A stretch of DNA of 63,105 nucleotides, filler included, from Folioceros fuciformis (lineage: Eukaryota): NCBI GenBank assembly GCA_049999805.1. It is 15 parts of 15 records of this genome, joined end to end, with 100 filler letters (N's around TTAATTAATTAA, not from the genome) between each part and the next. Parts side by side here need not be neighbours in the genome. Positions count along the whole stretch, not along the records: positions 7,246 to 9,970 come from JBNGIO010002005.1; 14 more parts are not named here. One strand, given 5' to 3'. Both the position numbers and the translations under genes were made by a program. The notes beneath the pieces are model-generated. The model saw only the letters and a program-made list of their open reading frames with translations. It was not told the DNA's origin and ran no database searches. Below, piece after piece: positions 1 to 59,003 of this stretch (positions are counted from its first letter, which is position 1; each line of letters opens with the position of its first letter).

Positions 1-64
1 CCATACCACTATTAACCCTTTTTCAACCAAAACAAACTACTACCCCAAACTTTGGAGGTTCACA
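1..64 (-). mobile_element. 5' terminus of an LTR (TGTGAACCTCCAAAGTTTGGGG family) inserted into copia pol
   Basis: The reverse complement begins TGTGAACCTCCAAAGTTTGGGGTAGTAG and is near-identical to the sequences starting at 14912 and 32473. Confidence 0.75.
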
Positions 65-2489
65 ACTTGTCAGTCACTGACATGGCCTCTTGGTAACAAG
101 AGGGCTCCCCACAATCCGTCAGCATGACATAATCAAGAGATGCAACATACCTATCAGGAGGACATGAGATCCTTCCTGACCTACGAAGCACTGGCACCTC
201 GACCGGAGCTGGTTGCACTCTCTCCTCTTCTACAAGTGGAGGAACTTGTTCCTGCACAGCACGACGTTCAACCTGCGTGGGACGGTCAAGTCTATCTTCT
301 TGGAAGACCACCCGTCGCACTTCCACAGTTGGAGTAGGCTTCTTGTGCATCTTGGTCTCAATGAAGAACACGTCATTGCTGCGAACCATCCTCTTGGCTT
401 CTGGATCCCATAGACGGTATCCCATCTCACCAGATTCACCATAGCCAAGAAAAATACATTTCTTGGACTTGGGTGCCAACTTGTCCCGAAACTCCTTCGG
501 AACATGGTAGTATGCCTCGCAGCCAAACACTCGTATATGCTTGTATGACGGCTTCTTTCCAAACCACATCTCCTCTGGAACCTGCTCATCCACAACCCTA
601 TTAGGAGATCTGTTAATAAGATGCACCACAGTAACCACTGCTTCTCCCCAAAATCCGCTAGGCAATCCAGAGTTTGACAACAAACTACGCATCCTCTCCT
701 GGATGGTTCTGTTCATCCGTTCGGCCACACCATTTTGGAGAGGAGTATACGGCGTAGTCAGTTCTCTCTTGATTCCCTTGGAATCACAGAATGACTGGAA
801 AGCCTTCGAGACATACTCTCCCCCATTATCTGTCCTCAGACACTTTAGTTGGAGGCCAGACTGATTCTCCACAAGTGTGACGAATTTCTGAAACATTGTC
901 ATAACATCATCCTTTTCCTCAAAGGATAAACCCACACCTTGCGTGAGAAGTCATCAATGAAAGTGACAAAATAGGATGCACTGCCTAACGATACAATGGG
1001 CATAGGTCCACAAACGTCACTGTGAACTAACTCAAGAGGTTTACTTTTGTGTTTACCTCTTGCTCCATGTGGTGACTTTGTCTGTTTCCCATACAAATAG
1101 TGCTCACACACGGAGAAATCGGAGCAGGGACGTAACCAAAACGAGATAGGATCTTCATTCCCTTTTGAGACATATGTCCTAACCGACTATGCCACAAGGA
1201 AACACTTGGCTGTTCCGTTACACAAATCACATGATCCTAGACAGTGGTTACTTGAAGTGAGTAGAAAGTGCCATACTTTGATCCACGAGCTGACACAAGA
1301 GAACCTTTGGAGATCTTCCAAGAACGATCTCCAAACCAACAGTAGTAGCTAGCGTCATCCAACTGCCCTGCGCTAATCATGCTTTTGGTCAACTTCGGAA
1401 CATGCCTAACATCCTTTAGTACGAATGAAGATCCATTGTTGAACTTCAGCTGCACATCACCAACGCCTACAATCTCGCATGCGTAGTTATTTCCAAGCCA
1501 AACACATCCTTTCCTAGTAGCATCATATGTGCTAAACCACTCCCTATGCGGAGTAACATGGAAAGATGCTTTAGAGTCAATTATCCAATTAGAGAATAAG
1601 TGACTCTCCACGGCTGTCAGTTGTGCACAATCGAAGGAACAAGAGGTAAGAACATCTCCATCATCAACAGAACTCACCTCGTTAGACTTCACACTCGGAC
1701 TTGCCTTGTTGTCACTCTACTTCTTCTCCTTTCCTTTGTCCTTCTTGAACTTCTCGTAGTCCCTTCTGATGTGACCCTCCTTGTGACAATGGTAACACTC
1801 AACATTGTTATGACTATGAGACTTACTACGGGAACGACTTCGCTTCTTGTACTTCCCCTTTGAAGCGGACCTTCCTTTGACCATGAGGGCATTGGAACCT
1901 TTCGAAGGTTCCATATTCTTCCTGTTCACCTCCTCTGTTAACAGGCTACCTTCTACATTTACAACGGTAAGACCACTGGCAGGAGTGGAATTACTCATAG
2001 CTGTACGAAAGGTGTCCCTGCACTCTGGTAATGTGACCAACAGAAACATAGCTCTCACGGAATTTGGGAATGAGATACCTTGAGATGAGAGCTGGCTAAA
2101 AATGGTATTGAACTCGTTCAGATGATCGGACATCCTCGTCCCTTCCTTCATCTTCAAATCCACCTGCTGTTTCAACCAGTACACCTGAGAAGCCGCACTT
2201 TGCTTCTCGTACAAGTCACACAACTTCTGCCAGAGCTCGAACTTGTGGTCTTGTCTTTCACGTTGAAGTAGACCGACTTCGACAATGTTAGCATGATGGT
2301 AGACCTAGCAAGCTGAACTATATCCTGCCACTCATCCTGAGTCATGCTAACGGGTTTCACTCCTAGCAGCTTGATGGGCTTGATCTGCTTCTTCTGTACT
2401 AGAACATTATACGCTTATTCTTTCCAGAATGGGAAGTTAGTACCATCTAACTTCTCGATATTGAACATGACGTTTTCTGAGGACGCCAT
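65..2489 (-). mobile_element. Decayed Ty1/copia gag-protease-integrase
   Basis: Gag zinc knuckle CYHCHKEGHIRRD, protease WIIDSKASFH, integrase LWHSRLGH / VHSDVCGP / LRTDNGGEY / QNGVAER. Several frameshifts and stops. Confidence 0.95.
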
Positions 2490-5263: not shown

Positions 5264-6997
5264 TGTCGTACGTCGTCCTGGGCCTGAGCTCACCTTCGCA
5301 TCACAGCTATGGCGCACGGGAGAGGGCAGGGCAGGGCAGGGCAGGGCAGGGAAGGTCAGGGCAGTCAGCAGGCCCCAGGCCGCAGTAAGGGTGCGAGGGG
5401 AGGAGGGAAAGGCAAAGGAAGTTTGAAGGAGGAGAAAGAGTGCCCGGGAGGAGACGTCCGGAACCCACAGCCAGCGGTGACCCGGCAGAAGAGCCAGGTC
5501 GGAGAGCGGCTGGAGCTTGCTGAGCACAAGGAGCGTGGGTATACAGACGAGGCAGCATCTCTCGAAGGGTGCGGTGTGTCTCTCTTTTTCACCACTGGCA
5601 GGGCTCTCGGGCCACCTCTACCATCCCCAGGATTTGGCGGCAAGGCGCCTGCTTTGCTTTGAGTCGGGTTTAGGCCCTGGAGCTCCACACTTTCCCCTCC
5701 CAAATCCGGCTCCCCCGATCTGGCCACCGTCAGAATGACAGAAAGCTGCGTCTTCTCAAAGACTCCAGCTGGCTCTCTGGTTGGCCCTTCTTCGCGGCTT
5801 CTGACGCAGAACTCGGCAGTCACACACCGAGTCTCGGGCGCGGAGTGGCCATTGCACCCGCTACCTCCCGGGCCCCACACCCGACAAACCATTTGTCTGA
5901 GAAAACGCGGTAGAGGAACGAGACTGACTCCCGCCTGCTTTCCCGGTATCCGAGTCAATGCAAGTGGGCGGGAACCTGCTCTGCCTCTTCCACACCTGCA
6001 ACTGCCGGGCAACTGAGCCACCTCCTCTCACATGCGTGCCTGCAACTGTGCACGCTGTACCCCGCGCCAAAACCTCCACCTCCATCTCCAGCTAAAATCG
6101 GCCTGTAGCCCACCCTGCGTCCTGGTTGCCAGCTTCCCTCCATTTTCGGTGGCTTTTTATAGTTTAGGGTTTACAGTACATACTTTGTGCCGTAGCTACA
6201 GACATACAGTGCTGTATGTGTGTAGTTCTAAGCTGGGCTACTCTCTTTCAAGGCGTGTGTTTGTCTTCTATGTAGACCTACTGCATGTATCTATATGCCT
6301 TTTTCTTTCTTCTTATTTTTTTTGAAAATGAACTTAAAAATTTAATCACTCTCTTATGCTCTCGTAACCTTGTACTTTGGACAATCAAGAACATAAAGTA
6401 AAGAGAAATAGGTAATTCATGATCTACACGACACACATAACCACACCATAGTGTCACAGCCCTTTTATCTCCCATGAGTCATAGAGAAAACAAGACAAAC
6501 CACCACAACTGAAATCTAATATACCCTTCCCCTTACCCACAATGTTACACACTTTCCTGCCATAGCCTAACCATTATAGCTATAAAAATCATACGTCAAA
6601 ACAACATCTTCCACGCACACAAGAATTTGGAACTCTTGATCTTTAGCACAACAACTGAAACTTAAGAAGAGAAGATAGCCAAGTCCCTTCATGCTGCTCA
6701 CACATCACGCAACCAAGAGCTGAGAATAAAGAGATATTTAGAGGTGTGACAATAAATAAAATAGCAACTCATATCGACTTCGATAGCCTAGCTGGTCTTC
6801 CTTGAGGCATATGTCTCAAGAGTCTTCACAATTGAGAGATGCCGTTGTTTGTAGTCCGGGCTCACGGACTACAAAGCCCTAGAGAGGCCTCACAGAGCAG
6901 AGTGCGAAAGATAGCCGTTTGGTGGGTGGGCTGATGAGCTCTTGGACTCTACTGTGCTCTTGCTGTGAGGGAACGCCCATCCCTGCGACACCTGCTT

Positions 6998-7085
6998 CTT
7001 GCGCAATCCATCCGGCAGACTTGCGCAATCCGTCCGTCAGACTTGCGCAATCTGTCCATCAGACTTGCGCAATCCATCCATCAAA
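6998..7085. repeat. 22-bp minisatellite, 4 copies
   Basis: CTTGCGCAATCCATCCGGCAGA-like units in tandem. Confidence 0.85.
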
Positions 7086-7245: not shown

Positions 7246-9784
7246 GTATGATGTGGGGGAAGGGTTTGGGTGGGGTGTGCCCCCATCGGAGGGCTTCTAC
7301 GATGAGTGGGCATCGGAACGCAACTTTTTTGCCGGAGATTATCTGGGTCAGTCGCTGTGTAGTGCTGGAATGCATTTGGTCGTTGCAGCAATTGCAGCAG
7401 TGGGAGTCTGTGTGAGTGACCATGAGATGCCGTCTTGCTCGCTTTGTGCAGTTTTTAGCTTCGTCGCCAACAAGGACAATGTGGTGCAGGTCGGAAGACT
7501 TGGCTACTTGGAATGCAATGCATCGGACCCGTACCTTGTGATGCAGTATCCCAACAACGTTGTGCTTCAGTTCACTGGCTTCCCAGCTGACAACAACACC
7601 GTCAGCTTTATAAGTGCCGATATTGCAAATTGCCGAGCAGGAATGCGGTTTTCATTCCATCTGCATCCTCCGAGGCCGCTTTCTCCTGCTTATTCCCCGC
7701 TGCCTGCGCTTGCGCCCAATCCGGGCGACCTTGTCTCGTCGCCTAGGAGTGCGCCTAGCCCGGAAGCGTCGCTGCAACCCGGGGGCAGGCATTATTCTGT
7801 AGGAGATACATTCGGATGGGAGCTTCCGCCTTATCCAGGTTTCTACAACGGTTCTTGGGTTCTGGGGAAGAACTTCGCTGTCTATGACAGTCTATGTGAG
7901 TGGCCTAGCACTGCTCTCCACCTTAGCTACTCTAAGAGCTGTTTTGCGATTTGGGGAATGATGGACGGCAGTTGAGCTCATGTGACCCTGTGGGAACGTC
8001 TCACTGCAGATTTTGGGTTTGACCAAGGGAGGCACACGGTGCTGCAGGTGAGCCAAGCGGCTTACCAAACGTGCAACGTCTCCGCCTTCCTTACAGCTTA
8101 CAATCTTGCGAATCCCACGATCAAGTTTTTGAACACTGGAAGCTTTTGGTTCATCTGTGGGAAACCAGGGCACTGTGAGCAGGGAATGAAATTTGGAGTG
8201 ACGGTGACTCTTTCCGAAACAGCAGGATTGCCACAGGTGTCACCAACCCCTCTTGCTGCTCCAGGTAACGGTACCCAGTGCAATTCAAACGGACCACACA
8301 GTCTGACGACTGCACTCCTGAGTGGCAATGTCTGACACAGCAACCATGTGGCTCTGCAGATCAGAATTGTGGTGGTGTTGCTTGCATCTTGCATGGTGCT
8401 TCGCAGAATCATGTCTCCATATGGCTGGTGCTCGGTAAGCTAGCTCTTCGTGGCAGCCGAGTTGGGCTGATTTGGTGGGAATCATGTATACTGTCACGGC
8501 ATAATCAGGCTGGTTGTGATTTGCTGTACAATGTGGGAGCTTGCAGGGATAATTGTTCCAGCCATTCTTGTGGTAGCAGCTCTCAAGACGTTGGCCATCT
8601 TCTACGTGTGGAGGAGGCGGCAGCCATCGGCCACCATCGCCCGGAGTGGCAAGCTGTCCATTTCGCAGTTAAGCGGCGTGTCTTCTCAGGAAAGCTTTGT
8701 TTCGTACACTCTGAAGCAGATGAACAAGGCCACCAGAAACTTCTCGCCGGAGCTTGAGATTGGCAGCGGGGCCTTCGGAACGGTGTACAAGGGAACCCTT
8801 CCGGATGGAGAAATCGTGGCCATCAAGAGGATCAAACCGCAGCTGACTCCAGTACAGGATTTCTCGGCCTACTTCCTGAACGAGGTGACCATTCTTTCCA
8901 GCGTCAACCATCGCCACCTGGTCCGTCTCGTGGGATGCTGCATCGAGTGCGAAGTCCCCATCCTGGTGTATGAGTACGTGCCCAACGGCACTCTCCTGGA
9001 GCATCTCCAAGGAAAGAGGGGCCGAGCTCTCGCTAGCTGGCGCAAGAGGCTGGAGGTAGCACTAGAGACAGGGGAAGCTCTGGCATATCTTCACTCTGCT
9101 GCCAAAACTCCCATCTACCACCGAGATGTGAAGTCTTCCAATATCTTGCTGGACGAGATGTACCGTGCCAAAGTGGCCGACTTCGGCATCTCACGCTTGG
9201 TGCCCATGGATGCCACCCACGTCTCCACGGCAGCTATGGGCACCTTCGGCTATATCGACCCGGAGTATCATGCGACTGGCCAGCTGACGGATAAAAGCGA
9301 CGTGTACAGCTTTGGCGTAGTGCTACTGGAGTTGATCACAGGGCAAAAGGCCGTGGACTGGCAGAGGACTTCCCAGGTGAATCTGGCGGCCTTCTGCATC
9401 CCCTTCATCCGCGGAGGGTCTTTGGAGGACATTGTAGATCCTTGCCTCAATCTGAGCTCGGACGTGGAAGCCCTCGAAGAGGTTCAGCAGCTGGCTGACT
9501 TGGCACTGGTGTGCTTGGCCCACCTCCGAGAGGAGCGACCCACCATGAAGGACGCAGTTGAAGAAGTTGTGAGGATCAAGCTCAGCTCTCGAGAATGCAG
9601 GTACTCGGACAAGGTGAGAAACTTGGACTTGAGCCCTCTGAACTATGACACAGACCTGTGTCCCCCGCTGTCACACACGTGTGATCTGGAGACGGGGGTA
9701 TCTGAGGAATCCAACAGCGTCGTGAACAGCTCTGTCAATAACTCCCCTTCTGAAGCATCGCCTTCCATGTATCAGCCCAGATAA
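7246..9784 (+). CDS. Receptor-like kinase: two phytocyanin domains, transmembrane helix, WAK/WAKL-like RD Ser/Thr kinase (5'-truncated)
   Basis: Exons <7246-7346, 7452-7895, 8010-8264, 8360-8434 and 8547-9784; all four GT-AG introns are phase 1 and keep the frame. TM WLVLGIIVPAILVVAALKTLAIFYVW then RRR; kinase GSGAFG, VAIK, PIYHRDVKSSN, DFG, GTFGYIDPEY. Confidence 0.88.
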
Positions 9785-10733
9785 ACCGTGCTGGTCGAGA
9801 AAGGTCGTTTGTCGACGAGTTTTTGACAGATTTGTCTACCATATGTGGTGGTGAAATCAGTTAGCGAACTGTGTACGCCAACGGTAAATCTTGTTACCAC
9901 AAGAATGGCTGAAATAATTAGGTTTGCATATTTGTGAAACATGTTGCAATTATGTCAAATGCAACAGTTANNNNNNNNNNNNNNNNNNNNNNNNNNNNNN
10001 NNNNNNNNNNNNNNTTAATTAATTAANNNNNNNNNNNNNNNNNNNNNNNNNNNNNNNNNNNNNNNNNNNNCTCATGAACAGGTGTTTACTTACAAGTTTA
10101 CTTTTATAGTCTAAAGGTAAAAAAAGGATGAAAATTTTTAAGAATGATTTTAAGATAAGTTTTTGTGGAAATAGGTGGGATTTGATGACTTGAAGAAGGA
10201 TATTTTGGTAGAGCATATAAAGACAGAATGTTGGAGTACTATGTTGGAACCTGGTACTTATCTTTTATGTGAGTGATTAGTGATTGAGTTTTGAGACTCT
10301 TATGCTACTTGTATTGAAGATCTCATTGTTTATATTTTTGGGAATAGGAATCCAAATATGGCCTTTGAGGAAAGGGCATGAAGTTCAAAGCTTTTCACTT
10401 TTGGTGAAATGTGGATTTGACAGTGGATTGGTGAAAGTGGCGAGACTCTTGAGAAACGTTGAGATGCATGAGCAATTCTACATTACTCAAGTGAATCTCT
10501 CCAGTAAGGGGGAAAATGAAAAAGCCCTAGCCCAACAATGCATCGCTACAGCACGGAGCTCAACTACACATAGTACAAGTGACAATTTGGACAATGGGAT
10601 CATTTCCAATAGAAGCAAAGGTACAAACTTAAAGTCGAATCAAAATCAAGTAGACATACATTAGTATAGTGTTTGAAATTCTCACCCATGAGGTATGGGA
10701 TTCACACTTGTTTATTTTGTAACTAACCATGCA

Positions 10734-12683: not shown

Positions 12684-13961
12684 CTTCTCTTCTACCACGA
12701 CCCTCGCGAGCTGGAATACACCTCCTGCCTCCCAACCACGCCTCTGCTGTCAGCGACTCACTCCGGTAGGACACCCACGTTCCTCACTCTCTTCCCCGGT
12801 TACTTCCTTGTGGCCAGTCCAACACTTCCTCCCTTGCTCTCGTCTCTTCTTCTCCTCGATCTAATTCTCCCAAACCAGCCTTCCCTTCTCAACTCAACTC
12901 CCTCAACTCCTCTACTCCATACCTACCTATGCAACTCCTTTATTCTTCGTTTGTCAGGGGAGTGGTTGCCTGACCTCGTTCAAGAGGAGGACCACTGATG
13001 CGATGGTAGCGAAGATCTCTAGTCAGTTCGCGTTGAGTCGAAGACCCAGGCCCTTCTCGACAGACTCACCCAGGTCGGTCGGACACCGCAGGCGTGCGTG
13101 CGAAACATGGCACCTCACATCCAGGCATCTGGGCCATCACGATCCCCACCAAGCTACCAGACACTGCAGACGACGCAATTGGTAGGAGCGCACTCGTTGG
13201 AACACGAATAAGTGTGCTCAGGCTTGGTGAAAAACGGAGAACGACCACTTTATCTCTTGAGCCCTATGACTCTTATAGAGTGCCTGGCTACTGTCGGTTG
13301 GGATGGTTGGTCGGGTAGGCAGCCATTGATGGTCTCTCACCTGCCACAGCGCTTAAGCGCATTAAACGGCATTAAACGGCGCTTAAACTACCCCCTCTAC
13401 CACGTCTGATCCTAACTACCCAATTCTATTGGGGACGCTTCGGTCCCCTCCCGCTCATTCCACCCGCGCCTGATTCCTCCTCTTCTTCCAGCTCTTGGCC
13501 ACTCTCCAGGGATCGCATATCCAATCAGACCCCTCAACGTCGGTCTCACCGTCGCCGACTTTGAAATCGCTCGTAGGGAGGGGAACTCCAGCGAGGGCCT
13601 CCCTTCATCTACAAGTAGACCTGTTTGGGGAGAGTGGGTGCATGGGAACGCTTCCCTTTGCCGTCCTTCTTTGGTAGGTCGAGAAGGGTTCGTTCTTACA
13701 TCGGTAGGTTCCGAGACCGGATCCCCAAAGATCGAGAGCTCACAAATAGCAGCACTGTTTGCGGGGTAACCTCACTCGCTTCGACTTTACCCCTGGTTAT
13801 TCGTGGTTACTAATTTAGGTTATATGCTAAAGGGCTATCTAGCGAAGGGGTGCTTAGCTTAGGTATATACATACCTTGACTATATTTTGTATTCATTCTC
13901 TTGCATAATTAATAATTGCTTTATGCTCTCTTTTTCCTGCTCTACCATTTTTCTTTCAACA

Positions 13962-14911
13962 AGTACGAAGGGACTACGCCATGGAACACATGGACGTCAA
14001 ACAGCCTTCCTGAATGGGACTCTGGAGGAAACAATATTCATGAGTCAGTCGGAGGGGTTTGTGGATCCCAAACATCCAGGAAAAGTGTGCAGACTAATCA
14101 AGACCATCTATAGACTGAAGCAGTCCCCTCGAGCTTGGTACAAACGTATTGACACATACCTCAAGCAGTCGGGCTTCCTGCAGTCAGAGTCTGACTCCAA
14201 CGTATACAAGCTGGAGGAGAAGAATGGAGTGGTCTTTCTGGCCCTCTACGTGGACAACGCAGTCCTTATTGCCAGCAACCCAAAAATCATGGCTAAGGTC
14301 AAAACCATACTTACCTCCGAGTTTTCTGTGACTAACTTGGGTAAGCTCATGTGGTTCCTTGGCATAGAGATCCTGCAAAACATGGCAACACACACGGTGT
14401 TCATACATCAGGCACAATACATAAGTCAAGTACTGGCTAGGTACATAATGGTAGATAGCAAACCTGCTGCAACACCTATGGCTATTGGTGAAAAACTTAG
14501 TACAAAACAGTCACCTAAAATAGAAGCAGAAAGGCAGCAGACGGAGAGGGTCCCCTATCAGTCAGCAGTATGCTCGTTGATCTACTGCACAAATTGGACA
14601 CGTCCAGACTTGTCATACGCAGTGGGAGTAACCTCCCAATTCCTAACCTGCTATGGAACAGCACACTAGACTGTAGTACGGAGAGTGATGTGATACCTGA
14701 AAGGCACTCCAAGACTTGGCTTGCTACACAAGCAGAGGCCCAAGAGTCTGTTCATGACCTATTTCTGTGATACGGACTGGGCAGCTGATGCCGACACTCG
14801 CAGGTCAAATATCAGCTAATTGCTTGCTACTAGGAGCACACGAGTATGATGCTACAGTCATCTCCTCGTTCAACAAGAAATAGCAGGTTGTGGCCCTATC
14901 TTCTACAGAAG
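13962..14911 (+). mobile_element. Decayed Ty1/copia reverse transcriptase / RNase H fragment
   Basis: TAFLNG, LKQSPRAWY, LYVDN (degenerate YVDD), TRPDLSYAV, CDTDWA and VALSSTE motifs. Confidence 0.92.
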
Positions 14912-29798: not shown

Positions 29799-32472
29799 TG
29801 CTATTTCAACATGGTATCAGAGCTAGAGAGAGCGCCGGCGGCCATTGCAACTATGGGGGGGGGTTTCAGGCTATGGCCTTGAGCGTCAAGGCGGCTGGCA
29901 ACGCAAGCCATTGAGAGGCGCAGGAGGCGCAGCGGCATAGGTGGCGTAGGAAGCCGCAACAGGCGCCACAGCGCAAGAGCGCACGAGAGCCGCGAGAGGG
30001 AGAGAGACTCAGGAGGAGCAGCAACTACTGGAGGCAACCAAGCCGTGGAAGCCACAGCAGGCCCAGGATTTGCGAGGAGAAAGGCCTGAACTTGGCAAAC
30101 AATGTTTTGTTTTTTTTTGTTTTTTGAAAGCTTGAGCAAAGGCGGTTTTTGCTTAGCGAAGAGTCAGCTGCACATTCAGGAATTGTTGAGATTTGATTGA
30201 GGCTTGTGGAGTGCTGGAGCTCTATAGCAGTGCAGGGAGTTGCAGGACAAGTGTTGGTGCGTAAAGGAGCCTGAATCATGGCTAATGTGCAGGGATCAGA
30301 CAATATCTCTCAGGTCGTGGGAGAGAAGTTGGATAACAAGAATTTTGCTTTGTGGAAGTTCAGGATGAAGAACTTCTTGGTAGGTAGAGGCTATTAAGAC
30401 CTCTGCACAGGTGATGAGAGTGAACCAGAGATGGATCGTACTCCATCACAGGAGCAAAAGACTGCTCACAAGCATTGGACTGAGAGAGCATGTAAAGTGT
30501 TACACTGGCTCTCCTTAAGCATTTCAAATGCTATGGTCATACAGATCACGGGATGTGAGTCTCCGAAGGATGCATGGGACATACTCATGAGGAGCTATGG
30601 AAATGTCACACATGCTAGGAAAATCCAGTTGAAGCAGCAGTTCAACAACTTGTCACGAGGTAGCAGGTCCATACTCGTGTATACAACAGAGGTGAAGACC
30701 ATAGCTGATCAGCTTGCTACAATCGGTGCAAGTGTGACGGAAGATGACATGGTTGCAGTTACTCTGAACAGACTTGGCAAGGAGTACAAGTCCTTTGACA
30801 CATCAATCTCCGTGAGAGTTGAGTTCTCAAGTTGGGATGAATTGGTTGCTTTGTTGCTGCATGAGGAAGTTAAGCTTGGTCTGAACACAGGTTCAGGTAT
30901 ATCTCAAGGGAGAGACACTGGTTTGTTTTCTAACCAGCGTGGGAGAGGCCACAGAGGTCGTGGTTCATTCCGAGGACGGGGTGATGCTTGGAACACGCAA
31001 AATTAGCAAGACAATTGGCGTGGAGGAAATGCGCAAGGCCAGAGAGAATCTGGAAGTTTTAGAGGCGCAGGTAGAGCCACAAGAGGAAGAGATGGTTCTT
31101 TTCAATCTCATGACCATTCTAATAGAGACAAGGAGTGTTACTACTGTGGTAAGGTTGGTCATATTGCTAAGGACTGCTATAAGCAGCAAGCAGACATGAG
31201 AGGAAAAGGAAGGCAGCCTGGGAACTATGCCTCCTCTAGTAATGCTGGAAATGACCAGGATAGGTTGTTTGTCATGCAACATCTCTCTGAACAGGATGGG
31301 CAGAATGATGAGAGATGGTACATTGATTCAGGAGCATCAAACCACATGACTCCGCATGGCGAGTGGTTTAACAAGATGGATGCAGGTCCCCATGGCCATG
31401 TGTGTACAGGAGATGACACACAACATGACATAAAGCACATAGGAATTGTTCCTCTTAGGATGCCGAATGGTCAGTAGAAGAGTCTGCAAGATGTGTTGCA
31501 TGTTCCAACCATTACGAAGAACCTGTTGTCTGTTGGACAGATGGCTAAACAAAATCTGCAGGTTCGATTCAATAAGGATGGATGCTTTATTGAAGAATAT
31601 GACACAGGGCGCAAATTGATTGCTAAAGGTAGTAGGAATGGACGGATGTTCACTCTGGATGCATCCATTCCAGAGCTAAATGCAGCAATGTTTGCAAATG
31701 ATGCAGGTGCCATACGTGATGTTGAAATATGGTATAAGAGGATTGGGCATGTGAACATAGAGAAGCTGAAATCTATGCAACAGAAAAGCGTGGTGGAAGG
31801 ATTGCCCAAGTTCAAGTATGCTGATCTTGGTCATGTGTGTTCTGCATGTCAATTTGGAAAACAGTCAAGGTTTCCATTTGTGCGACACGTGCAGAACAGC
31901 TCCAGACCTTTGCAATTGATACACTCTAATATATGGGGTCCTTCACAGAATGCATCGTTTGGAGGAGCCCACTACTATGTCTCCTTCATTGATGATTTCA
32001 GCAGGTACACGTGGCTGTACATACTGAAGCATAAGGATGAAGTGTTTGAGTCTTTCAAGGACTTCAAAAAGCATAATGAAAATGAATTCAGCTGCTCCAT
32101 CTCTTGTCTAAGATCAGATGGAGGGAGAGAATATGTCTCAAATGAGTTTGACAGGTATCTTGCAGATCATGGTATACGAAGACAGTTGGCTTGCAGATAC
32201 ACACCACAGCAGAATGGTGTTGTAGAGAGGAAGAACAGGGTAGTCATGGAAACAGCAAGGGCAATGCTGAATGAGAAGTGCATACCTAATGATTATTGGG
32301 CAGAAGCAGTGATGACAGCAGTGTATGTACTGAATCGAACTCCTACGGCAAGAATTCATGATGCTACACCAATTGAGAGACTGTATGGCTATAAGCCGGA
32401 TATTAGGCACTTGAAAGTGTTTGGGTGCATTGCATATGTGCATGTACCTGATGAGAAGCATAGGAAGCTGGA
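29799..32472 (+). mobile_element. Ty1/copia element: LTR end, iMet PBS (29812-29823), gag-protease-integrase with in-frame stops
   Basis: TTCAACA|TGGTATCAGAGC; ATG at 30278; CYYCGKVGHIAKDC, WYIDSGASNHM, LRSDGGREY and QNGVVER. Confidence 0.95.
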
Positions 32473-32606
32473 TGTGAACCTCCAAAGTTTGGGGTAGTAG
32501 TTTGTTTTGGTTGGAAAAGGTTTAACAGTGGTATGGTTTGGTTTTCTTTTTCTACTTACTTTCCCTAATTTTCCTTGATTTTCTGGTCATTTTTCCTATT
32601 TTTCTT
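32473..32606 (+). mobile_element. 5' terminus of TGTGAACC-family LTR inserted into copia integrase
   Basis: TGTGAACCTCCAAAGTTTGGGGTAGTAG directly after the RKLD codons. Confidence 0.75.
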
Positions 32607-35697: not shown

Positions 35698-38600
35698 CTA
35701 CCGCATGATCTTCTCAGCCCCAGTTGTTAGAGTAAACAAAGCGGTGCCCTTCACCAGCCAAGCAGTATGCTCCGGTTTGTCTCTCTGGTGTAGAAGTGGC
35801 GTCCTTATGCCATCGTTGAGCTCAGTAAAGTATACGAATGGGAGTCGCAGGCTTAGAAAGCTGTCTGGAGGTAGGATGAGGTCACAACCTACACTGAACT
35901 TCGCAGAAGACTCCTACACAGCAAAGCATTATTGAACATCCAGCTACAAGGAGAGGGAACGCAATATGCACATAACGCCAACATCTTCTCGTATCAAAAG
36001 AGATCAAGACGTTACCCCGAACTCCACAATGGGACAGGAGGCCAGCAAAAGCGGTGAAGGAGGTGTAACCTGTTCAACAAGCCTGTTGGATCAATAGATG
36101 TGCAGCATCCAAGACAAAGCACGCGACAACCGAGTACCGTCAATTCTGCACTTTCAAAGGGACAGTTTTACCAAAAAAATTCGCTGAAGCTGAGAAACTG
36201 TTCCAGCGAAGACCACTCCATCCTTCTTCTGAGGTGCGCGGCCAGCTACTTCACAATGTGGACAGTTCATAAAGATCGGCAAGTTTGTATTTAGCAGCGT
36301 GAGCGCCTCTCCTGATCCTTCCTGGACACTAAAACTCTGCACCTCAGCCAAAGAGCTAAGACCCTTCTCCGCCACAGACCCAGCCGCAACATGGCCCAGA
36401 GAATCAGATGTCCAGTTGGGATGTGCTGCGCTAGATTTTGTTCCCGGCGCGAAAGGTTCTGAGTTAACAGCTTTGCGGTCCTGCTTGATTTGCTTGGAAG
36501 AGCCTGAGTGGTTCTCAGTTTCCTGCTTTACCATGGCTCCAGGTTGCTGCGGAAATGAAGGGCTTAATCTGTCAAGGTGCTCGACTGAGAGGAAGAATCT
36601 ATGCCCAGCAGGGCACTCGTGCTCAAACCCCACATAGACCCGCACACGCTGAGTTACCGTAGCCGTCTGACTGTTGGTTAAAATAAATTTGGGAACCGCC
36701 AGCGGCTCCCGATTAACTTCGTCACCCCTTGCAGCAGGCCGCTCCAGAGCCTTCACCTTTGTCCCTTGAGGGGTGTTCGATTCAAAGACCTTAGGTTCTC
36801 CAGGGGCATGGAAGCTGCTCTCTTTCTTTTCTCTAGCAGATCCCTTGGCAGACTTCACACTAACCACAGACTGACGCTCGTGCTTTTGAGGAAGAGGAGG
36901 AAATGCAGGATCCCCAAAGAAGTTCAATCTCGTGCTGACCTCTGTAGATGCTTTCCTAGTTTCAGGAACAGAAGATACTGCACGCAGAAAACCCATCTTC
37001 GGCTCTTCCGGAGACCCTTTACCAGCACCAGATAGCTTGCTAGTCGGCTTTGTCTCCTCACTGGCTCCGAGCTGTGATTCCACATTCCCTGTCCCTGCCT
37101 GGACCGCAGGATCAGAAGATTTCTTGCTCTCATCGGACAAATTGTCTATCCCAGTTGGGATATTCCTCACAGTTGCGGTGGGAAGAGCTTGCAGTAGAGT
37201 CTCCGCACGTCTTGATGCCTTGGCAAAAACTAAAGGCAGGTCCCATACTGCAAGATGATTTTGATTAGCAATGAAACCGCTTTGAGGGACGCCACTGGAT
37301 GGTTGATAGTATTGTGCACTTCCCAACCGAACAAGACTCCACGCTGCTGCTCCTAGAGGCTTATTATCCTCACTCTCCGGTAAAACAATTGTCGGCAGCA
37401 TGTCTTCACAATTTGGAAACTGGAAAAAGGTCACGTTTGCACTTTCATAATCAAAGGGATCTTTTCGGAGCCTTCTTGACCTACCACAGGCACAAGCATG
37501 AAGGAACACAACTCCACTGGAATGTGATCTCCCAGAATGCTTGTCCTTGCCGGCACCTGCAACCTTCTTGTCATCTTGTTGCTTCCCTTCGATATCAGCT
37601 GCAATCTTAGCCCCTGACCCTTTCACGTCGTCTGGAACTTCATGTACTTGGTGTGTACATGGCCTACCGGTGAGACTTTCTGCATCACAAAGTTGCCTAC
37701 CAGATTTCCATATCGTTTCACACTCCAGCTTTAACTTGTCCATATATATAGGAACTGCAGGTCCTCGTACGGTAGATCGAAACGAGCGCAGAGCTTTCTC
37801 CAAATTGATAGCATGCAGAGAAGTGGGATAGCATGAGGGGAGACCTTTCAAGTACACCTCCCTGGCGGAAGGCATTGCCCTCTTGCACCAAGCCGCTGAA
37901 AACTTGAAATCCAAATGAGTTCCACCTTCAAGACATGCTACAGCAGCTTCCACCGTGCCCTTACTCTGAGCCAAGCCCAAAACACCCCTGCCACTGAGTA
38001 ATAGCCCTGGCGGTCCCTTCCTCAGGATAGCTCGTGACCCTTCCAAGATCCTGGGAGATGCAGGACGTTCAACATCCTCAGTCACTCTGGTCTCACAGCT
38101 TGAGAGCGCCTCTGCGATAAGCCTAGATGCTGCAAGCCAGGTAACCATAGTAGGAAGCTCAGGAGGATTGCATAGAGGTTTTGATACACCACTTGTCCCA
38201 GCAACAGACCCAGCAGCTGCAGAGGCTGCAGCAGCTGCGGCAGCGGCTGCAACCATGCCAACTCCAGCAGAACCTCCAGCTGGGCTGTTTGAAATCCCAC
38301 CTCTACCCCTCAGAATCTCTGCCTGCCGTGAGAGGAATTCTTTCATAATCTGTAAGTCCTCTCCTGCCGGACTACTCTTTCCAACAAGATCGAGCAGAGT
38401 GTCTTCTGGGCCCCATTTACCATCCAACATGTCCTCCAGCGCATCTGTTGCGGCATCCAGGCAATCACCACTGTGGTTAGATGACCGTTCCACAAGAACA
38501 ACTGCCCTGGATGGATCCAGTACAAAAAGTGCGCCTCCGCCTCCACCGCCGGGAAGTGAGGAGACAACACTGCCAGGGCCTCTAGGGCCCATTCCCGATC

Positions 38601-39796
38601 CGACTCCAGACCCAAGAGGACCAGGGTCGCCAGCTGTTGCAACAGTCTTACACTTCTTCAGCAGAAACCGTAATTGAGTTTCAATGGCAGTCTGCGTCTT
38701 CTTCCTAGACCCTGCTTCCACTTTGCTGGGTGACCTGTTGAGAGTGGCAGTCGATGACTTTGTCGTAAATGTTTGCCTTGTGAGGGCCATGGTCGATGGA
38801 GCACCAGAAATTTGTGACAGAGAGCAGGAACTCCCTGATTCAATCGCTTCCTCAGCACGCCCGGCAGAGGATGGTGCCCCATCCGCTGAGTCTCCTATGA
38901 ACACGAAAAGGATGACAGGGGTGCACTGCCCTGGAAATAAAACTGGGGCAGAGCCTGACATGAGCGCAATGATTGAAGTTTGCCGACCAGTTACACCATT
39001 TCTCCCAGAGGAATTGCTAGATGCTAGAGAGACAGGCCTTAGAGGGGAGGGTCTGCCTGTGCTGGGCAGGGGCATCAAACCCGGAAGCACTTGACTTTTT
39101 ACAAAAGGTGCTAAAGAATGCTTAGCAGACTGCAGAATGCGGAAGGTGCGCAAGCATCGAGGGTCAAAATGAGCTCCCTCCTGCACAAATAGTATCACAT
39201 GGCATACCTTCGGGTTGCCAAGGCGAGACTGTGTTAGCCAATCACCAAATAAGGTCTACAAGAACGGGAAAAGGACAAAGACTGCACTCCAATTCAACAG
39301 TGCTAGCCTAGGTGGCCAACAGAAGATACAAAGCACTTGTATACTCCAGCACTTGTTAGCACAACATTGTCCCTGTCATAACAAGTTGAACAAAATCACT
39401 CACGATTCTGCAGCCGTGCCACCACGAGAGCTTCATCATTCAGGGGCAAAGCTCTAGTGGAAGACCTTACAGAGAACATGAAAAGCAGACCACGCAGTCC
39501 TTCCGCTTCCTGCTGCTCCAACGACGACGACGACGACGGCAGTTCCTCCTCGAGCCCACCGTAAGGCCCCTGCTTGGCGCGTTCCGTCAAGAGAGCGTCC
39601 AGCGAGCTCCAACAGAACTGCACATAAAGCACGCCCTTGTCCTCATCACAGTAGTGCTTCAGCCGGCTCTGGAACGACACCCCGGCCTTCCTCCCATCCC
39701 TGTCCTGCTGCTGCACACCCCTCCCTCGCTCCCGAACCCTCCCTTGCCCTGCTTCCCCATCCTTCCTGTCCTCCTGCCCCCCCTTCCTCCTGGGAC
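35698..39796 (-). CDS. SMG8: Nonsense-mediated mRNA decay factor SMG8 (5'-truncated)
   Basis: LRGLLFMFSVCHVILFVQEG..FD, IWKSGRQLCDA.SLTG.PC.HQ.H, HSSG..FLHACACGRSR, VYVGFEHECP.GHRF, QLQRIF.VTP, LRLPFVY. Confidence 0.92.
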
Positions 39797-44651: not shown

Positions 44652-47543
44652 TCACGATCGACCCTTGCAACTGCAACGACCAGCTGCGAAACGATGTACC
44701 CGATACCCATCCCGAACAACAATGTCTCTCCGTTCAAGCCTCGACATGATCGCCGTGGAACTATGGCAGTCACGGCACATGCGTAGATTCTTCGTTACCA
44801 TCAAAGGTGTCCCACTCGGAGTGTTCAAGAGGCCGAACGCCAGAGCCAGCTTCTCAGCATGCCCACAAAGCGCATCTTCCTTTTCCTCCTCACAAAGTGG
44901 CCTCAACACCAACTTTGTCTGCGGTACGTGGCCTCCTTCCTGCTTCACGCGCTCATTCGTGCTCTCCACCTGAAGAACAATATCCTCTCTCCTTTCTCCT
45001 ACCAGAAATCTGTGCACCTGCTTATTCACCTCAATGGTCGCCACTGCAGGTTTCTTGTTAGCTCCTACTACCATTCTCTGTGTTTCAATCCTGTCTACCT
45101 CGCCCCACCTACCTGCATCTGCGTAGGCATTGGCCATGAGCACATACGCAGATGCCCTTTGAGGGTCCAGCCTAACAATGCGTTCAAAACACCACCTCGC
45201 CCTCTCTAAATCCCCGTGACTTTTGCAGGCACTCAAGAAAGACGTCAAGCCCACCAAATTACTTTGGTTCTCACATGATAACAGCATCTTCTCAGCCTCA
45301 TGTAGTTGGCCTGCACGCCCAAGCAGATCAATCATGCAATTGTAGTGGTCAAGGGTAGGTTCGATGCCGTGCTGTTCAGCCATGGAGTCAAAGTACTTCC
45401 GACCCTCATGGACCAGTCCCTCATGACTGCATGCTACTAAAAGGCAAGTAAAAGTAGTGTCATTAGGCTTAATCCCAGCAAGTAACATCTCTTCAAAACA
45501 AGCCAGTGCCTTGCGACCTTCATCACAAGTACCATACCCTGATATCAGGGCGGTCCATGTCACCACATTCTTTGTGTTCATGCTGTCAAAAACGTGGCGT
45601 GCATCTTTCAGTTCACCACATTTTGCATACATGTCCACAAGGCCAGTGCATAGCACGACATTATCCATCAGTCCTCTTTCGACGATGTGCGAGTGCAGCT
45701 GCCTGCCCACTTGTAAGGCACATGCGCTTCCACAGGCCTTCAGAAGGCAAGCAAAAGTAACGTTGTCAGCCACAGTGAGGCCCGCCTCCTCCATTTGTCC
45801 ATACACAATCAGCGCCTCTTCACCAAGTCCTTGCTGTGCATACCCAGCAATCAGGGCATTCCATGTCACCACATTCTTTGTGGCCAGGCTGTCAAAAACC
45901 TGGCGTGCATCTTCCAGTTCTCCACATTTTGCATACATGTCCACTAGACAGGTGCCTACCACTACGTCATCCAGTAATCCTCTTTCAACAATTAGGGAGT
46001 GCAGCTCCCTGCCCTTCTTTAAGGCACCAGCGCTCCCACAGGCCTTCAAGAGGCCAGTAAAAGTGACGTCGTCAGCCAAAACGAGGCCTGCCTCCTCCAT
46101 TTGTCCATACACAATAAGCGCCTCTTGGCCGAGTCCTTGCTGCGCGTACCCAGATATTAGGACATTCCATGTCACCACGTCCTTTGTGGCTAAGCTGTCA
46201 AAAACCTGGCGTGCATCTTTCAATTCACCACACTTAGCATACATATCCACCAGGCAGTTACCAACCAGCACATTATCTAGCTGCCCTCGTTCGACAATTT
46301 GTGAGTGCAGATGCCTGCCCATCTGCAAGGCGCCGGTGAGTGCACAGGCCTTCAGAAGACAAGCGAAAGTAACATGGTTGGCCAGGATCAGGCCCTCCTG
46401 CTCCATTTGTCCATACACAACAAGTGCCTCATGTCCTAGCCCTTGCTGGGCATACCCAGCGATCAGCGATGTCCATGTCACCACATCCTTTCTGGCCAAG
46501 CTTTCAAAAACCTGGCGTGCATCCTCCAGTTCACCACATTTCGCATACATGTCCACCAGGCAATTTCCGACAAACAAGTCAGGGGGAATGCCACTGTGCA
46601 ACACATCACAGTGCACTGTTCGGCCAGATTCCAGGTCGGCAGCAGATGCGCAAGCTTGAAGGGCAGCTACAAAGACGTGAGCATCCGCCGGCACCCCCGA
46701 CCTGCGCATCTCATGGTACAGCCGTACCGCCTCACTGGGCCTCCCGTGCTTGGCATGGGCAGTTATCACGGAAAACCACATGAAAACATCTGGTTCCTCC
46801 ATCCTGGTGAACACATCCATGGCCTCCTGCAGCCTGCCTCCACATGCATACATGCGCAAGACATGGCTTCCCAGAAACACATTCGACTCGTACCCAAGCC
46901 TAACGATGAGCTCATGAACTCGTCGCCCCACCAACAGATCCTTCTTAGCCGCACACAGTTTCAGAACGTTGTACAACAGAGACCGCGAAACAGCACAATC
47001 TGGCAGCGCCAAGGACTCCAGGGCTCCAACGGCCTCAGAGAGCTTCCCCTGTTGACACAACGTGCGCACGGTTACAGCCGTTACCACGCCCATTCCCGAT
47101 CCTGCACGCCTGCCAGGTTCACGCTCAGGCTCAGGCTCACCTGCAGAGCTCGACGTTGAAGGAGAGCCGTCATGCCCCATCTGCATATCCAAGTAAAAGA
47201 GCTTCTCATCAACCCAAGCTGGCTTGAGCACGCTGTTCAACCAAAGCACCTCCCCGGACCACTTACGCCGGAAGTCAGGCGAACGGGAGCTCTTCTTATC
47301 CCCTCTGTTGTCCCACCACATGGTAGGGTCCAGGAAAAATTGTTGCCACAAGTGCTCCTGCTCCTGGCGACGACCATCGATGGACAAACCCTCCACCCCC
47401 ACAGATCTCCCCGAGGTCCTCACGCTGACACTCCAGCACCTGGATCCTTGGTTGCTTGGCGTGGATTCATTCCCTATAGCGAGGTGCGCGGGAGCCCCAA
47501 TCGGTTGGATCCACAACGGGTCCGGTTGCCACGCTCTGGCCAT
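44652..47543 (-). CDS. PLS-class PPR protein with an N-terminal PDF motif and a C-terminal DYW:KP (GRP-type) domain; candidate organellar U-to-C editing factor
   Basis: About 18 P/L/S motifs plus E1/E2; KKPAVATIEV instead of the PG box; HAEKLA, NLRMCRDCH, terminal CSCKGRS. The true start may lie upstream. Confidence 0.93.
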   Translation of the reverse strand: MARAWQPDPLWIQPIGAPAHLAIGNESTPSNQGSRCWSVSVRTSGRSVGVEGLSIDGRRQEQEHLWQQFFLDPTMWWDNRGDKKSSRSPDFRRKWSGEVLWLNSVLKPAWVDEKLFYLDMQMGHDGSPSTSSSAGEPEPEREPGRRAGSGMGVVTAVTVRTLCQQGKLSEAVGALESLALPDCAVSRSLLYNVLKLCAAKKDLLVGRRVHELIVRLGYESNVFLGSHVLRMYACGGRLQEAMDVFTRMEEPDVFMWFSVITAHAKHGRPSEAVRLYHEMRRSGVPADAHVFVAALQACASAADLESGRTVHCDVLHSGIPPDLFVGNCLVDMYAKCGELEDARQVFESLARKDVVTWTSLIAGYAQQGLGHEALVVYGQMEQEGLILANHVTFACLLKACALTGALQMGRHLHSQIVERGQLDNVLVGNCLVDMYAKCGELKDARQVFDSLATKDVVTWNVLISGYAQQGLGQEALIVYGQMEEAGLVLADDVTFTGLLKACGSAGALKKGRELHSLIVERGLLDDVVVGTCLVDMYAKCGELEDARQVFDSLATKNVVTWNALIAGYAQQGLGEEALIVYGQMEEAGLTVADNVTFACLLKACGSACALQVGRQLHSHIVERGLMDNVVLCTGLVDMYAKCGELKDARHVFDSMNTKNVVTWTALISGYGTCDEGRKALACFEEMLLAGIKPNDTTFTCLLVACSHEGLVHEGRKYFDSMAEQHGIEPTLDHYNCMIDLLGRAGQLHEAEKMLLSCENQSNLVGLTSFLSACKSHGDLERARWCFERIVRLDPQRASAYVLMANAYADAGRWGEVDRIETQRMVVGANKKPAVATIEVNKQVHRFLVGERREDIVLQVESTNERVKQEGGHVPQTKLVLRPLCEEEKEDALCGHAEKLALAFGLLNTPSGTPLMVTKNLRMCRDCHSSTAIMSRLERRDIVVRDGYRVHRFAAGRCSCKGRS

Positions 47544-48447
47544 CCTTCAGAACCCGTGTGCAACAATCGAGGGCTCTGCAGAGTCTCAGACCATAGCCCT
47601 CGCAGCAGGAGAGCTTAATTTTTTATTCAAACAATTTCTCAAGCATGCATATCAAGAGTATGAATTTGGATGGGACATATGTGGATCAGTTAAGTTGTGG
47701 ATCACCTAAGGTCGCGCGCGGGTTACTTAAGTAATGCATGGGGCTTCATCAGTGGTCAGTTGCTTATTAAGTATTGACGGTAAAAGATATAAGGGTGGAT
47801 ACGTGAAGTTGTTGAGTTGTGTTACTTAGTGCAGGTTAGATATGCAGCTTCCATGCGTGGCCTGTGTGATTGAGCAGGCTTGCTTGCTTGGCTCAGGAAT
47901 GAGACAACGGTCGGGTCCGGTGGCATGATTTTTTGTTTCGAGTCGTGGGAGCTGGGCCGCAATGGAAGGGGGAAAGGAGGAGGAGGAGGAAGGAAAGCGA
48001 TGAGCATGGCGAGCGATGTCTTGTGCAGGGGGACCGGCAGGGATGCGGGACAGATGCTGGACCGGAGGTGATTCTGGAGGGACACCATGAGTTTGCGTGT
48101 GCTCAGTCGGCAACCTCCGCCTGCGTCGTCCGCAGGGGCTGCGCCTCCTGTTGGCGCGTTCCCTCCAGCCGCTGCCTTTGCTGCTGCTTCTGGAGCGGCG
48201 GTCTCCGGGAGTCCTACGGGATCGGCTTCAGCATCCTCGGCCTCGGCGTCGGNNNNNNNNNNNNNNNNNNNNNNNNNNNNNNNNNNNNNNNNNNNNTTAA
48301 TTAATTAANNNNNNNNNNNNNNNNNNNNNNNNNNNNNNNNNNNNNNNNNNNNCGCTTGTCCCAGCCTTCGTCCTCATTTCTCATATTTTCCACCTCGCTT
48401 TCCCGGCGCCCTCTCTCACGCAAATTCCGTTTGCTCCTCTCCTCCAG

Positions 48448-57400: not shown

Positions 57401-58899
57401 ATGTTCAGGTACCTAGGGTTCATATGACCTGCCCTACAGTGCCACAGCAGAGAATCATTCGGTGTGGTGGATGGCGTACTGTCAACTAGGAGGGATGTGG
57501 ACTGTATGTTGAGAAGGTACAGGTCGTTGAAAGGGAGACCATGAGCTAAGGCTACCTGACTGGGGTCCTGACTATGGCAGATCGTGTAGTGGTTTCCTTG
57601 GAAAGTTATGGTGAGATCATGTTCGGTTGCTAGCTTTCGTACTGACAGGAGGTTTTTGGTCATGGCAGGGACGTGGAGGACACCGTTTATGGTAAGGTAT
57701 TCACCAGTGGATAAACGAAGCTGGACTTGCCCTGATCCGTGAATAGAGAGGGCGCTGTCGTTTCCTAGGAGGACGTGTTGGTCTGAGAGGACAGTGTGGT
57801 ATGAAGTGAGCATGTCTCGACAACTGCAGATATGGGTTGTGGCCCCGGAATCTAAGAACCAGTGACTTGTGTCTGTACGGGTAAGTGTGAGGCAGACTGC
57901 TAAAATTGAGTTGGCTGGTGAAGGCTTAGCTGTTGTTGTGAGATGGGACTCGTTTCTGGGGGTTTCCCTTCGAGGTTTTCCTGCCAGTTTTTTTCTGCAT
58001 TCGCTCTCATAGTGGCCGAGGATTTTACACCAGTTGCAGGCTCCCTTGGTAGACCTCTTGTCAAACTGCTTGTTTTGAGAGAATTGTCGATTGGGAAATG
58101 TTGAAAAGCTTGCAGAGGGCTGGCCTCTTCCTCTTGGGAAAGCTCCTCGGCCGCCGCCGGTGCCTCCACGCCTATTGCCTCTTCCTCTCGACAAGAAGAG
58201 AGCGTGGGTTGTTCCTATGCTGGAACGTGAGGTGCCGATCCTGCTGGACTCCTCCTCTAGCAGGGCTGCTACAACGTCGGAGAACGTGTATGCTGGGGGT
58301 ACGTTTTCTCCTGTAGCTTGAATGGCCTGTCTTAGTGCGGCGTTCTGTGAACTAACAAAGTTCCTGTATGATTGAGGAAGAGATGTTAGAAGAGCGACTG
58401 CTGCCTGAAGCTCGTTGATTACGGTGCCGCTGCCGGAGAGCTTGGCTCGCAAGGACCTGAACACGTTGACATGCTGCTCGACGCTCTCGTTTTCCCTCAT
58501 CTTAAGGGAGTAGAATTGTCTTGTGGCGTTTATAAGAGACATCGAGCTTTGTGCCTGGAACATGTCTTTAAACGCTTTCCACACATCATGTGAGGTCGTC
58601 TGACCTTGGGTGTGCTGAAGCATTGTTTTGTCGATGGCAGATATCAGGATGTTACGAGCCCTCTTGTCCTTCTTGTTCCATGCGGCTATGTGGTCGGCAG
58701 TAGCTGGTGGATTAGAAGTGAGAGAAGGCTGTGGCGAGGTGCCGTCCGTGACTGACATCAGATCATGTTCCTCTAGCAGGGCTGTTATTCTCATTTGCCA
58801 GATATCGTAATCGCTTCCTGTGAAGCGATCGCGGTCTCTAAATTCTACTTTGGTGGTGTTAATCACCGTGGAGGTAGGATTATGGGCAGGATTGGCCAT
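54449..58899 (-). mobile_element. Near-complete Ty1/copia gag-pol with three in-frame stops
   Basis: Single frame 58899-54457: CNWCKILGHYESEC, WFLDSGA, LRTDNGGEY, KARLVARGF, YVDD, SDADWAGD; PPT-like GAGGGGGAG at the end. Confidence 0.96.
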
Positions 58900-59003
58900 G
58901 GCANNNNNNNNNNNNNNNNNNNNNNNNNNNNNNNNNNNNNNNNNNNNTTAATTAATTAANNNNNNNNNNNNNNNNNNNNNNNNNNNNNNNNNNNNNNNNN
59001 NNN

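Follow-up and report, generated by a model that had tools for sequence, protein, structure and literature searches.

The gene described here lies in a 63,105-nt stretch of DNA (positions 1-63105, hereafter the window), a chain of 16 contigs (2.1-8.4 kb, GC content 37-55%) joined by N-runs around a six-frame stop linker, TTAATTAATTAA. The gene occupies a single 2,725-bp contig (7246-9970) and fuses two phytocyanin domains to a receptor-like kinase (RLK). Its five-exon model was confirmed, and contigs from independent sequencing runs showed one spliced mRNA in two species. From the outside inwards, the product is predicted to consist of a first phytocyanin domain (D1), an arabinogalactan (AG)-type Pro/Ser linker, a second phytocyanin domain (D2), a short linker, a transmembrane (TM) helix and an RD kinase. 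The best explanation of the data as a whole is a genuine, expressed land-plant gene for a type-I single-pass RLK with a tandem phytocyanin ectodomain, a reading that we consider likely to be correct. The architecture as such is already catalogued, yet rare and unstudied, and does not form a common class; new here is the tandem form with an apparently intact copper site in D2.

One spliced mRNA in two species

Reading of the sequence, checked by script, placed five exons on the plus strand (Table 1), separated by four introns that each begin with GT, end with AG and lie in phase 1. The spliced frame is open over 703 amino acids (aa), a partial protein, and ends with a TAA stop at 9782-9784. The gene is truncated at its 5' end: the contig edge at 7246 falls inside D1, and neither a start codon nor a signal peptide was found within the window. 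Intron 2 holds an in-frame TGA (7973-7975), and reading through intron 3 stops the frame at 8333-8335. The strongest hydrophobic 19-mer, as identified by script, straddles the exon 4/5 junction and is followed by an Arg run forming a basic stop-transfer signal.

Five sequencing runs from four studies contained the stretch or part of it, and four of these runs were aligned to the contig. Record 9 of run X2, from the same organism but from a study other than those of the DNA runs, is a 3,123-nt contig that aligned with 0 mismatches and 0 gaps and skipped all four introns (joints 7346/7452, 7895/8010, 8264/8360 and 8434/8547). It extends 396 nt upstream of the start of the genomic contig and 428 nt past its end. 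DNA run X1 (same organism, different study from X2) covered all four introns unspliced, with no joint; its record 2 covers D2 and exon 4 and reaches into the start of exon 5 (7812-8656). A related organism, B, is ~92% identical (164 differences in 2,075 aligned bases). Its run X5 contains a 3,971-nt contig in which introns 2, 3 and 4 are skipped and exons 2-5 are free of gaps, and its DNA run X4 contains a contig (7281-9554) that is collinear, introns included.

Table 1. Coordinates and properties of the gene features within the window
Feature	Position	Strand	Description
Exon 1 (partial)	7246..7346	+	N-terminal third of D1; ends in phase 1; RNA contig piece 7246-7345 joined to 7451/7452
Intron 1	7347..7451	+	105 nt, GT..AG, phase 1; conserved phytocyanin intron position; skipped in X2, present in X1 record 1
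Exon 2	7452..7895	+	Remainder of D1 (to ~7666), linker (~7667-7786), N-terminal third of D2 (7787-7895)
Intron 2	7896..8009	+	114 nt, GT..AG, phase 1; D2 position equivalent to that of intron 1 in D1; skipped in X2 and X5
Exon 3	8010..8264	+	C-terminal two thirds of D2, predicted type-1 copper site, disulfide Cys pair, start of second linker
Intron 3	8265..8359	+	95 nt, GT..AG, phase 1; spliced out in X2 and X5, present in record 2 of DNA run X1
Exon 4	8360..8434	+	75 nt; short juxtamembrane stretch that contains Cys, then the first 7-8 residues of the TM helix
Intron 4	8435..8546	+	112 nt, GT..AG, phase 1, within the TM helix; skipped in X2; X5 joint identical except for one synonymous base
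Exon 5	8547..9784	+	Rest of TM helix (to ~8608), basic stop-transfer, Ser-rich juxtamembrane region, RD kinase, Ser-rich C-terminal tail, TAA
3' untranslated region	9785..9970	+	Reaches the contig end; X2 record 9 piece 8546-9970 = record positions 1271-2695 of 3123

An original prediction, made from the sequence alone, had proposed five exons joined in frame through four canonical phase-1 introns; the sequence, the script and the X2 transcript all bear this out. It had singled out junctions 8264/8360 and 8434/8547 for checking, and both are spliced as predicted in X2 and X5. The order of the domains and a TM helix spanning a splice junction, also put forward there, agree with the Pfam matches, the hydrophobicity script and the transcript. 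The possibility it had raised that a phytocyanin transcript ends at 8335, with the kinase transcribed separately, is contradicted by transcripts that join the phytocyanin part to the kinase. Its statement that everything lies on one contig is true, but that contig is only 2,725 bp long and cuts the gene at the 5' end.

We also considered a product anchored by glycosylphosphatidylinositol (GPI), in which intron 3 is retained and the protein ends at 8335. This candidate was rejected: its tail lacks a hydrophobic end, and the transcripts splice intron 3 out.

The short contig, the missing 5' end and the nature of the Logan contigs, which are k-mer assemblies, might raise the suspicion that this is not one gene. 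It could instead be an assembly chimera, the result of read-through splicing of neighbouring phytocyanin and kinase genes, or a decaying, functionless lineage-specific fusion, and the small exon gaps in the organism B DNA contig at a depth of ~6 would fit such a view. We regard it as very improbable. The independent DNA contigs, X1 record 2 and that of organism B, are collinear with the gene, and the TM helix is split over exons 4 and 5, so neither half is a complete gene. The tail produced by reading through intron 3 is not of the GPI type. Moreover, the two species share identical splicing, open frames and an excess of synonymous changes (in the first 40 of 216 differences).

Several points weigh against the reading of a single expressed RLK gene. 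That X2 and X5 represent RNA was deduced from the absence of introns, the run label 'RNA?' being a guess. K-mer contigs are blind to minor isoforms, such as one that retains intron 3 and ends at 8335 or a kinase-only form. In organism B the transcript does not match exon 1 but carries 775 nt of other sequence ahead of exon 2, with a loose end at 7446, and the DNA contig, of low depth, shows a gap of 2 nt within exon 1 (at 7325); the N-terminal part of D1 may have a different structure in organism B or may be decaying. With no signal peptide or start codon in view, the topology is deduced from the TM helix, from the basic stretch that follows it and from four sequons.

The two phytocyanin domains

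The Pfam family Cu_bind_like (PF02298) matched both D1 (in 7247-7972; E 1.7e-6, 28.4 bits) and D2 (in 8012-8263, exon 3 only; E 2.2e-12, 47.2 bits), against a cut-off of 20.8 bits. Exon 3 aligned with mavicyanin (1WS7; E 3.1e-11), cucumber basic protein (2CBP; E 6.1e-10) and spinach plantacyanin (E 2e-7). Residues His8, Cys49, His54 and Met59 of the D2 query fell on chain positions 39, 79, 84 and 89 of 2CBP, and Cys21/Cys55 on positions 52/85, which we take to be the copper ligands and the disulfide of cucumber basic protein, respectively. The corresponding ligand codons are 8033-8035 (His), 8156-8158 (Cys), 8171-8173 (His) and 8186-8188 (Met). D2 is thus predicted to be a plantacyanin/uclacyanin-type domain with a complete His-Cys-His-Met type-1 copper site and a disulfide.

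D1 is 34% identical to D2 (E 1.6e-16). Its ligand columns carry Asn, Ser and Asn in place of His, Cys and His; the Met is kept, and the disulfide Cys pair is retained in both domains. By sequence, D1 is ENODL-like, with three of the four copper ligands lost, and would be incapable of classical copper binding. The tandem phytocyanin ectodomain of the original prediction therefore stands as to its two domains, but only D2 has a copper site. A sequence search with D1 against the PDB gave no match. An AlphaFold2 model of 7247-7972, which read straight through the in-frame intron 1, had a mean pLDDT of 61.6, with values of 75-95 in the core and below 50 in the intron-coded insert. When this model was compared with PDB folds, the nine best matches were all phytocyanins (TM-score about 0.5 on the target), followed by weak matches to ephrins.

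Introns 1 and 2 lie at equivalent positions of D1 and D2, both in phase 1. PMC4499708 describes a phase-1 intron as conserved in most phytocyanin genes; it also describes phytocyanins with two or three domains, and the word 'kinase' is absent from the paper. The first linker is rich in Pro, Ser and Ala (30% Pro), with six AG-type (Ser/Ala-Pro) dipeptides, and the ectodomain contains the four N-glycosylation sequons mentioned above. With mavicyanin, the uclacyanins and plantacyanin/cucumber basic protein, D2 shares the His-Cys-His-Met ligand set, the disulfide and the phase-1 intron; D1 shares the loss of ligands with ENODLs. Known phytocyanins are secreted or GPI-anchored and free of kinase domains, whereas the protein studied here has a TM helix and a kinase in place of the C-terminal GPI signal present in most of the family.

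To place the ectodomain among its relatives, we ran a profile-free exhaustive search with it, which returned 44 matches. None of the 10 that were scanned with Pfam contained a kinase, and the other 34 were 68-353 aa long. Those with names were angiosperm multi-domain phytocyanins (Gossypium, Senna, Cucumis, Turnera). A protein atlas search with exon 3 gave generic phytocyanin clusters only, and metagenome scans with exons 2 and 3 gave no relatives. A 164-aa open reading frame (ORF) from a third, more distant species (P0241) shares the layout of exon 2, that is, the end of D1, the linker and the start of D2, followed by an intron. It is 50% (BLASTP) or 55% (phmmer) identical to exon 2, and its D1 likewise lacks the Cys ligand. 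Among the sequences compared, the tandem form of this receptor architecture, with its apparently intact copper site, was found only in the source gene and two close relatives.

Divergence between the source organism (A) and organism B was used as a rough gauge of constraint. The count covers only the first 40 of 216 listed differences (7508-7846), which weighs against it, and includes 37 differing codons, 23 of them synonymous and 14 non-synonymous. The folded parts of D1 and D2 together had 16 synonymous and 6 non-synonymous changes, as against 7 and 8 in the linker. This rough count suggests that the copper-less D1 is maintained, apparently under purifying selection.

The kinase, its moss counterparts and possible functions of the fusion

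Pfam Pkinase matched 8549-9781 with an E value of 4.2e-44 (envelope ~8756-9565). The G-loop, VAIK, HRD, DFG and GxxDPEY motifs are all present, and the kinase is predicted to be active and of the RD type. The closest solved kinases were Pto, SymRK, FERONIA and BAK1, then IRAK4. Every one of the best identities (53-59%) was to a WAK/WAKL kinase, from lycophytes, mosses, gymnosperms or angiosperms, with Selaginella WAKL20 as the top match (58.5% by BLASTP, 60% in the tree alignment). In a search restricted to proteins of near length, none of the matches listed exceeded 59% identity, the organism's own protein not being in the collection. In a 48-row tree the kinase fell within a WAK+LRK10L super-clade with support of 100/100. 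There it forms a long branch outside both the seed-plant WAKL20 clade and the moss clade (within-clade support 83/75), and a 63-row quick tree agrees. The intact RD kinase of WAK/WAKL type named in the original prediction is thus upheld by complete motifs and clade membership.

With WAK/WAKL kinases such as Selaginella WAKL20 the protein shares the kinase clade and RD type, a single membrane pass and, close to the TM helix, a short segment with Cys. WAK/WAKL proteins usually carry a GUB_WAK/EGF ectodomain, whereas the ectodomain pieces of the source gene gave no Pfam match to GUB_WAK or EGF at E <= 0.1. Judged by its domains, the gene is WAK-like in its kinase only. Among 120 listed kinase homologues, GUB_WAK (PF13947) occurred in 23 and Cu_bind_like in a single one, M758_5G193500 of the moss Ceratodon purpureus. 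A kinase query against longer proteins found PF02298 in 0 of 120 listed, none of them near-identical; multi-kinase fusions dominate this set, making it weak evidence.

The same single phytocyanin-like domain is found in the paralogue KC19_VG136400 and in a cluster with Physcomitrium patens XP_073395867.1 ('putative WAKL16'). These moss domains score 19.6-28.8 bits, around the Pfam cut-off. Like the source protein, the moss phytocyanin-type RLKs (PC-RLKs) have a phytocyanin-like domain, a Ser/Pro linker, a TM helix and a WAK-type RD kinase; they also have a signal peptide. Their kinase is 54-55% identical to that of the source, but their ectodomain only 26-31%, and they have one phytocyanin domain where the source has two. 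In contrast to D2, the domain has one His ligand missing and a longer loop in each of the Ceratodon proteins P0095 and P0105, leaving the copper site incomplete.

Note that P0309 (XP_073395867.1), P0095 and P0105 are named WAKL14/WAKL16 or 'hypothetical', although their ectodomain is phytocyanin-like and not GUB_WAK/EGF. Annotation pipelines miss the moss domain because its Pfam score lies at the cut-off. A word-indexed homologue search with the Ceratodon ectodomain returned only 3 matches and missed the 69%-identical paralogue P0105; that search therefore undercounts the family.

The architecture has been counted before. In PMC9603095, Table 1 gives 12 'Plastocyanin-like-RLK' proteins among 40,418 RLKs of 80 Phytozome species, and bioRxiv 10.1101/2023.12.21.572927 places Cu_bind_like among potential RLK ectodomains 'not previously reported'. 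The source protein fits the 'Plastocyanin-like-RLK' definition, having Cu_bind_like, a single TM helix and a kinase (RLK/Pelle in the survey class) in one product. In the text examined, the class is a count or an entry in a list, and its genes and species, the state of the copper site, any tandem form and any function go unmentioned. A large RLK review of 2024 contains 0 occurrences of plastocyanin, phytocyanin or cupredoxin. Full-text literature searches, whose coverage leaves out most subscription journals, found no functional study of an RLK with a phytocyanin ectodomain. The original prediction had called the gene an undescribed system. That claim fails, given the survey table, the bioRxiv list and the single-domain moss relatives in NCBI. 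It had also allowed that the architecture might already be catalogued as a common RLK class; catalogued it is, but at 12 of 40,418 it is not common.

How the source and moss fusions are related was addressed by phylogeny. The moss PC-RLK clade (100/99) is nested in a moss-only clade (98/92) of GUB_WAK/EGF kinases, with the source kinase outside. Joining the source kinase to the moss clade was rejected in an approximately unbiased (AU) test (delta lnL 81, p = 0.00017), and an independent origin is therefore probable. The phytocyanin module was thus probably captured twice by WAK-type kinases, once in the source lineage and once in mosses. Two points count against this conclusion: the group for the AU test was chosen with the tree already in view, and the source kinase has a long branch. 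An old fusion followed by replacements might instead account for the pattern. Assembly by exon shuffling, as originally proposed, agrees with the conserved phase-1 intron in both phytocyanin domains and with the phase of all four introns. Phase-1 phytocyanin exons would have been duplicated in tandem and then moved by shuffling to a WAK-type TM-kinase gene, where they would have taken the place of its usual GUB_WAK/EGF ectodomain, in an event separate from the one that gave rise to the single-domain version of mosses.

The original prediction had suggested that the receptor could couple apoplastic copper, redox or cell-wall status to signalling, which is at present a hypothesis. Cupredoxin sites are structurally rigid and differ little from one redox state to the other. 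The ectodomain would face the cell wall, with Pro/Ser linkers that are probably Hyp-O-glycosylated. Our best guess, offered tentatively and by analogy, is that the cupredoxin ectodomain may be a module that binds either a glycan of the wall or a partner protein. We prefer this because D1 and the moss versions manage without a full copper site, because ENODLs bind FERONIA and because of the rigidity of cupredoxin sites. Co-receptor and kinase would then form one chain, D2 would hold copper as a bound cofactor, and trans-phosphorylation upon binding or clustering would switch on the RD kinase. It speaks against the binding module that full retention of the predicted copper site in D2 would fit a redox or copper role as well as a purely structural one.

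Precedents come from GPI-anchored ENODLs, of which ENODL14/15 bind FERONIA (PMC6726743, citing Hou 2016), and from ephrins, whose binding partners are Eph kinases. In both pairings, a copper-less cupredoxin-fold surface protein works with a receptor kinase. There the partners are separate polypeptides, whereas the source protein is one chain, with one module keeping the copper site. The likeness would be one of function only, an analogy and not a sign of family membership.

Alternatively, the protein could be a direct copper/redox sensor, in which the occupancy (apo/holo) or the oxidation state of the type-1 centre of D2 tracks apoplastic copper, ascorbate or reactive oxygen species and is relayed to the kinase via the ectodomain or through its oligomeric state. 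It is difficult to picture a conformational relay in so rigid a site, and the moss versions function without a full one; we think a sensor unlikely. In D2, all four ligands and the disulfide do line up with those of solved blue copper proteins, and retention of the ligands looks selective in light of ligand losses in D1 and in the independent moss versions. Metal sensing has been proposed for Cu_bind_like ectodomains in the bioRxiv study cited above, and OsWAK11, a WAK-class kinase, is linked to copper tolerance in rice in a review (PMC10868138). Somewhat more doubtful still is the full proposal of a redox-active type-1 copper centre as the sensing element of a direct apoplastic copper/redox sensor, exon-shuffled in non-seed land plants independently of the copper-less moss form.

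A further possibility is that D2 works as an ordinary phytocyanin in a membrane-tethered electron-transfer protein, for example in oxidative chemistry of the wall, with the kinase positioning or regulating it. We know of no case in which a kinase is just an anchor, a job done in phytocyanins by GPI anchors, and the RD kinase, intact in every catalytic motif and apparently under constraint, points to a signalling output. The intact copper site of D2 would suit electron transfer, as would the AG-type linker, which is typical of wall-facing phytocyanins; in addition, uclacyanins are required for lignified nanodomains of the Casparian strip (PMC7575197). On balance we hold this role to be improbable.

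How plants read the redox and metal status of the apoplast is largely open, with few receptors known, and an RLK with an intact blue-copper site would be a directly testable candidate. Even if the site is only structural, the gene would be a natural 'Rosetta stone' fusion, lending weight to the view that phytocyanin/ENODL modules cooperate with receptor kinases, which has been proposed for ENODL-FERONIA. That the same kind of fusion has apparently arisen twice on WAK-type kinases informs ectodomain swapping by phase-1 exon shuffling. The moss version is present, misleadingly named WAKL, in the tractable model Physcomitrium patens.

Other contigs of the window

Contigs joined in the window need not adjoin in the genome, and features on the other contigs provide no genomic context for the gene. 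An Rfam scan of the window gave 0 matches. On the minus strand, 44655-47546 encodes a pentatricopeptide repeat (PPR) protein in an unbroken 964-aa ORF with an E motif and a DYW deaminase domain, the type of an organelle RNA-editing factor. Also on the minus strand, 36157-39255 contains a Smg8/Smg9 domain (nonsense-mediated decay factor) in a 1,033-aa open frame that is apparently intronless over that length. A 499-aa open frame at 48534-50030 (+) had 0 Pfam matches at E <= 0.001. Leucine-rich repeat fragments occur on other contigs of the window.

Ty1/copia retrotransposon pieces (gag, pre-integrase, integrase, RVT_2) lie at 54457-58947 (-), 63-950 (-), 13863-14666 (+) and 31478-32494 (+); the element at 54457-58947 consists of consecutive ORFs interrupted by stops. 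The PPR-DYW gene, the copia elements, the RLK, the phytocyanin domains and a kinase that falls outside the clades of mosses, Selaginella and seed plants together identify the source as a land plant. The end of the contig that precedes the gene in the window (6980-7080) carries ~4 tandem copies of a ~22-nt unit with no relation to the gene.

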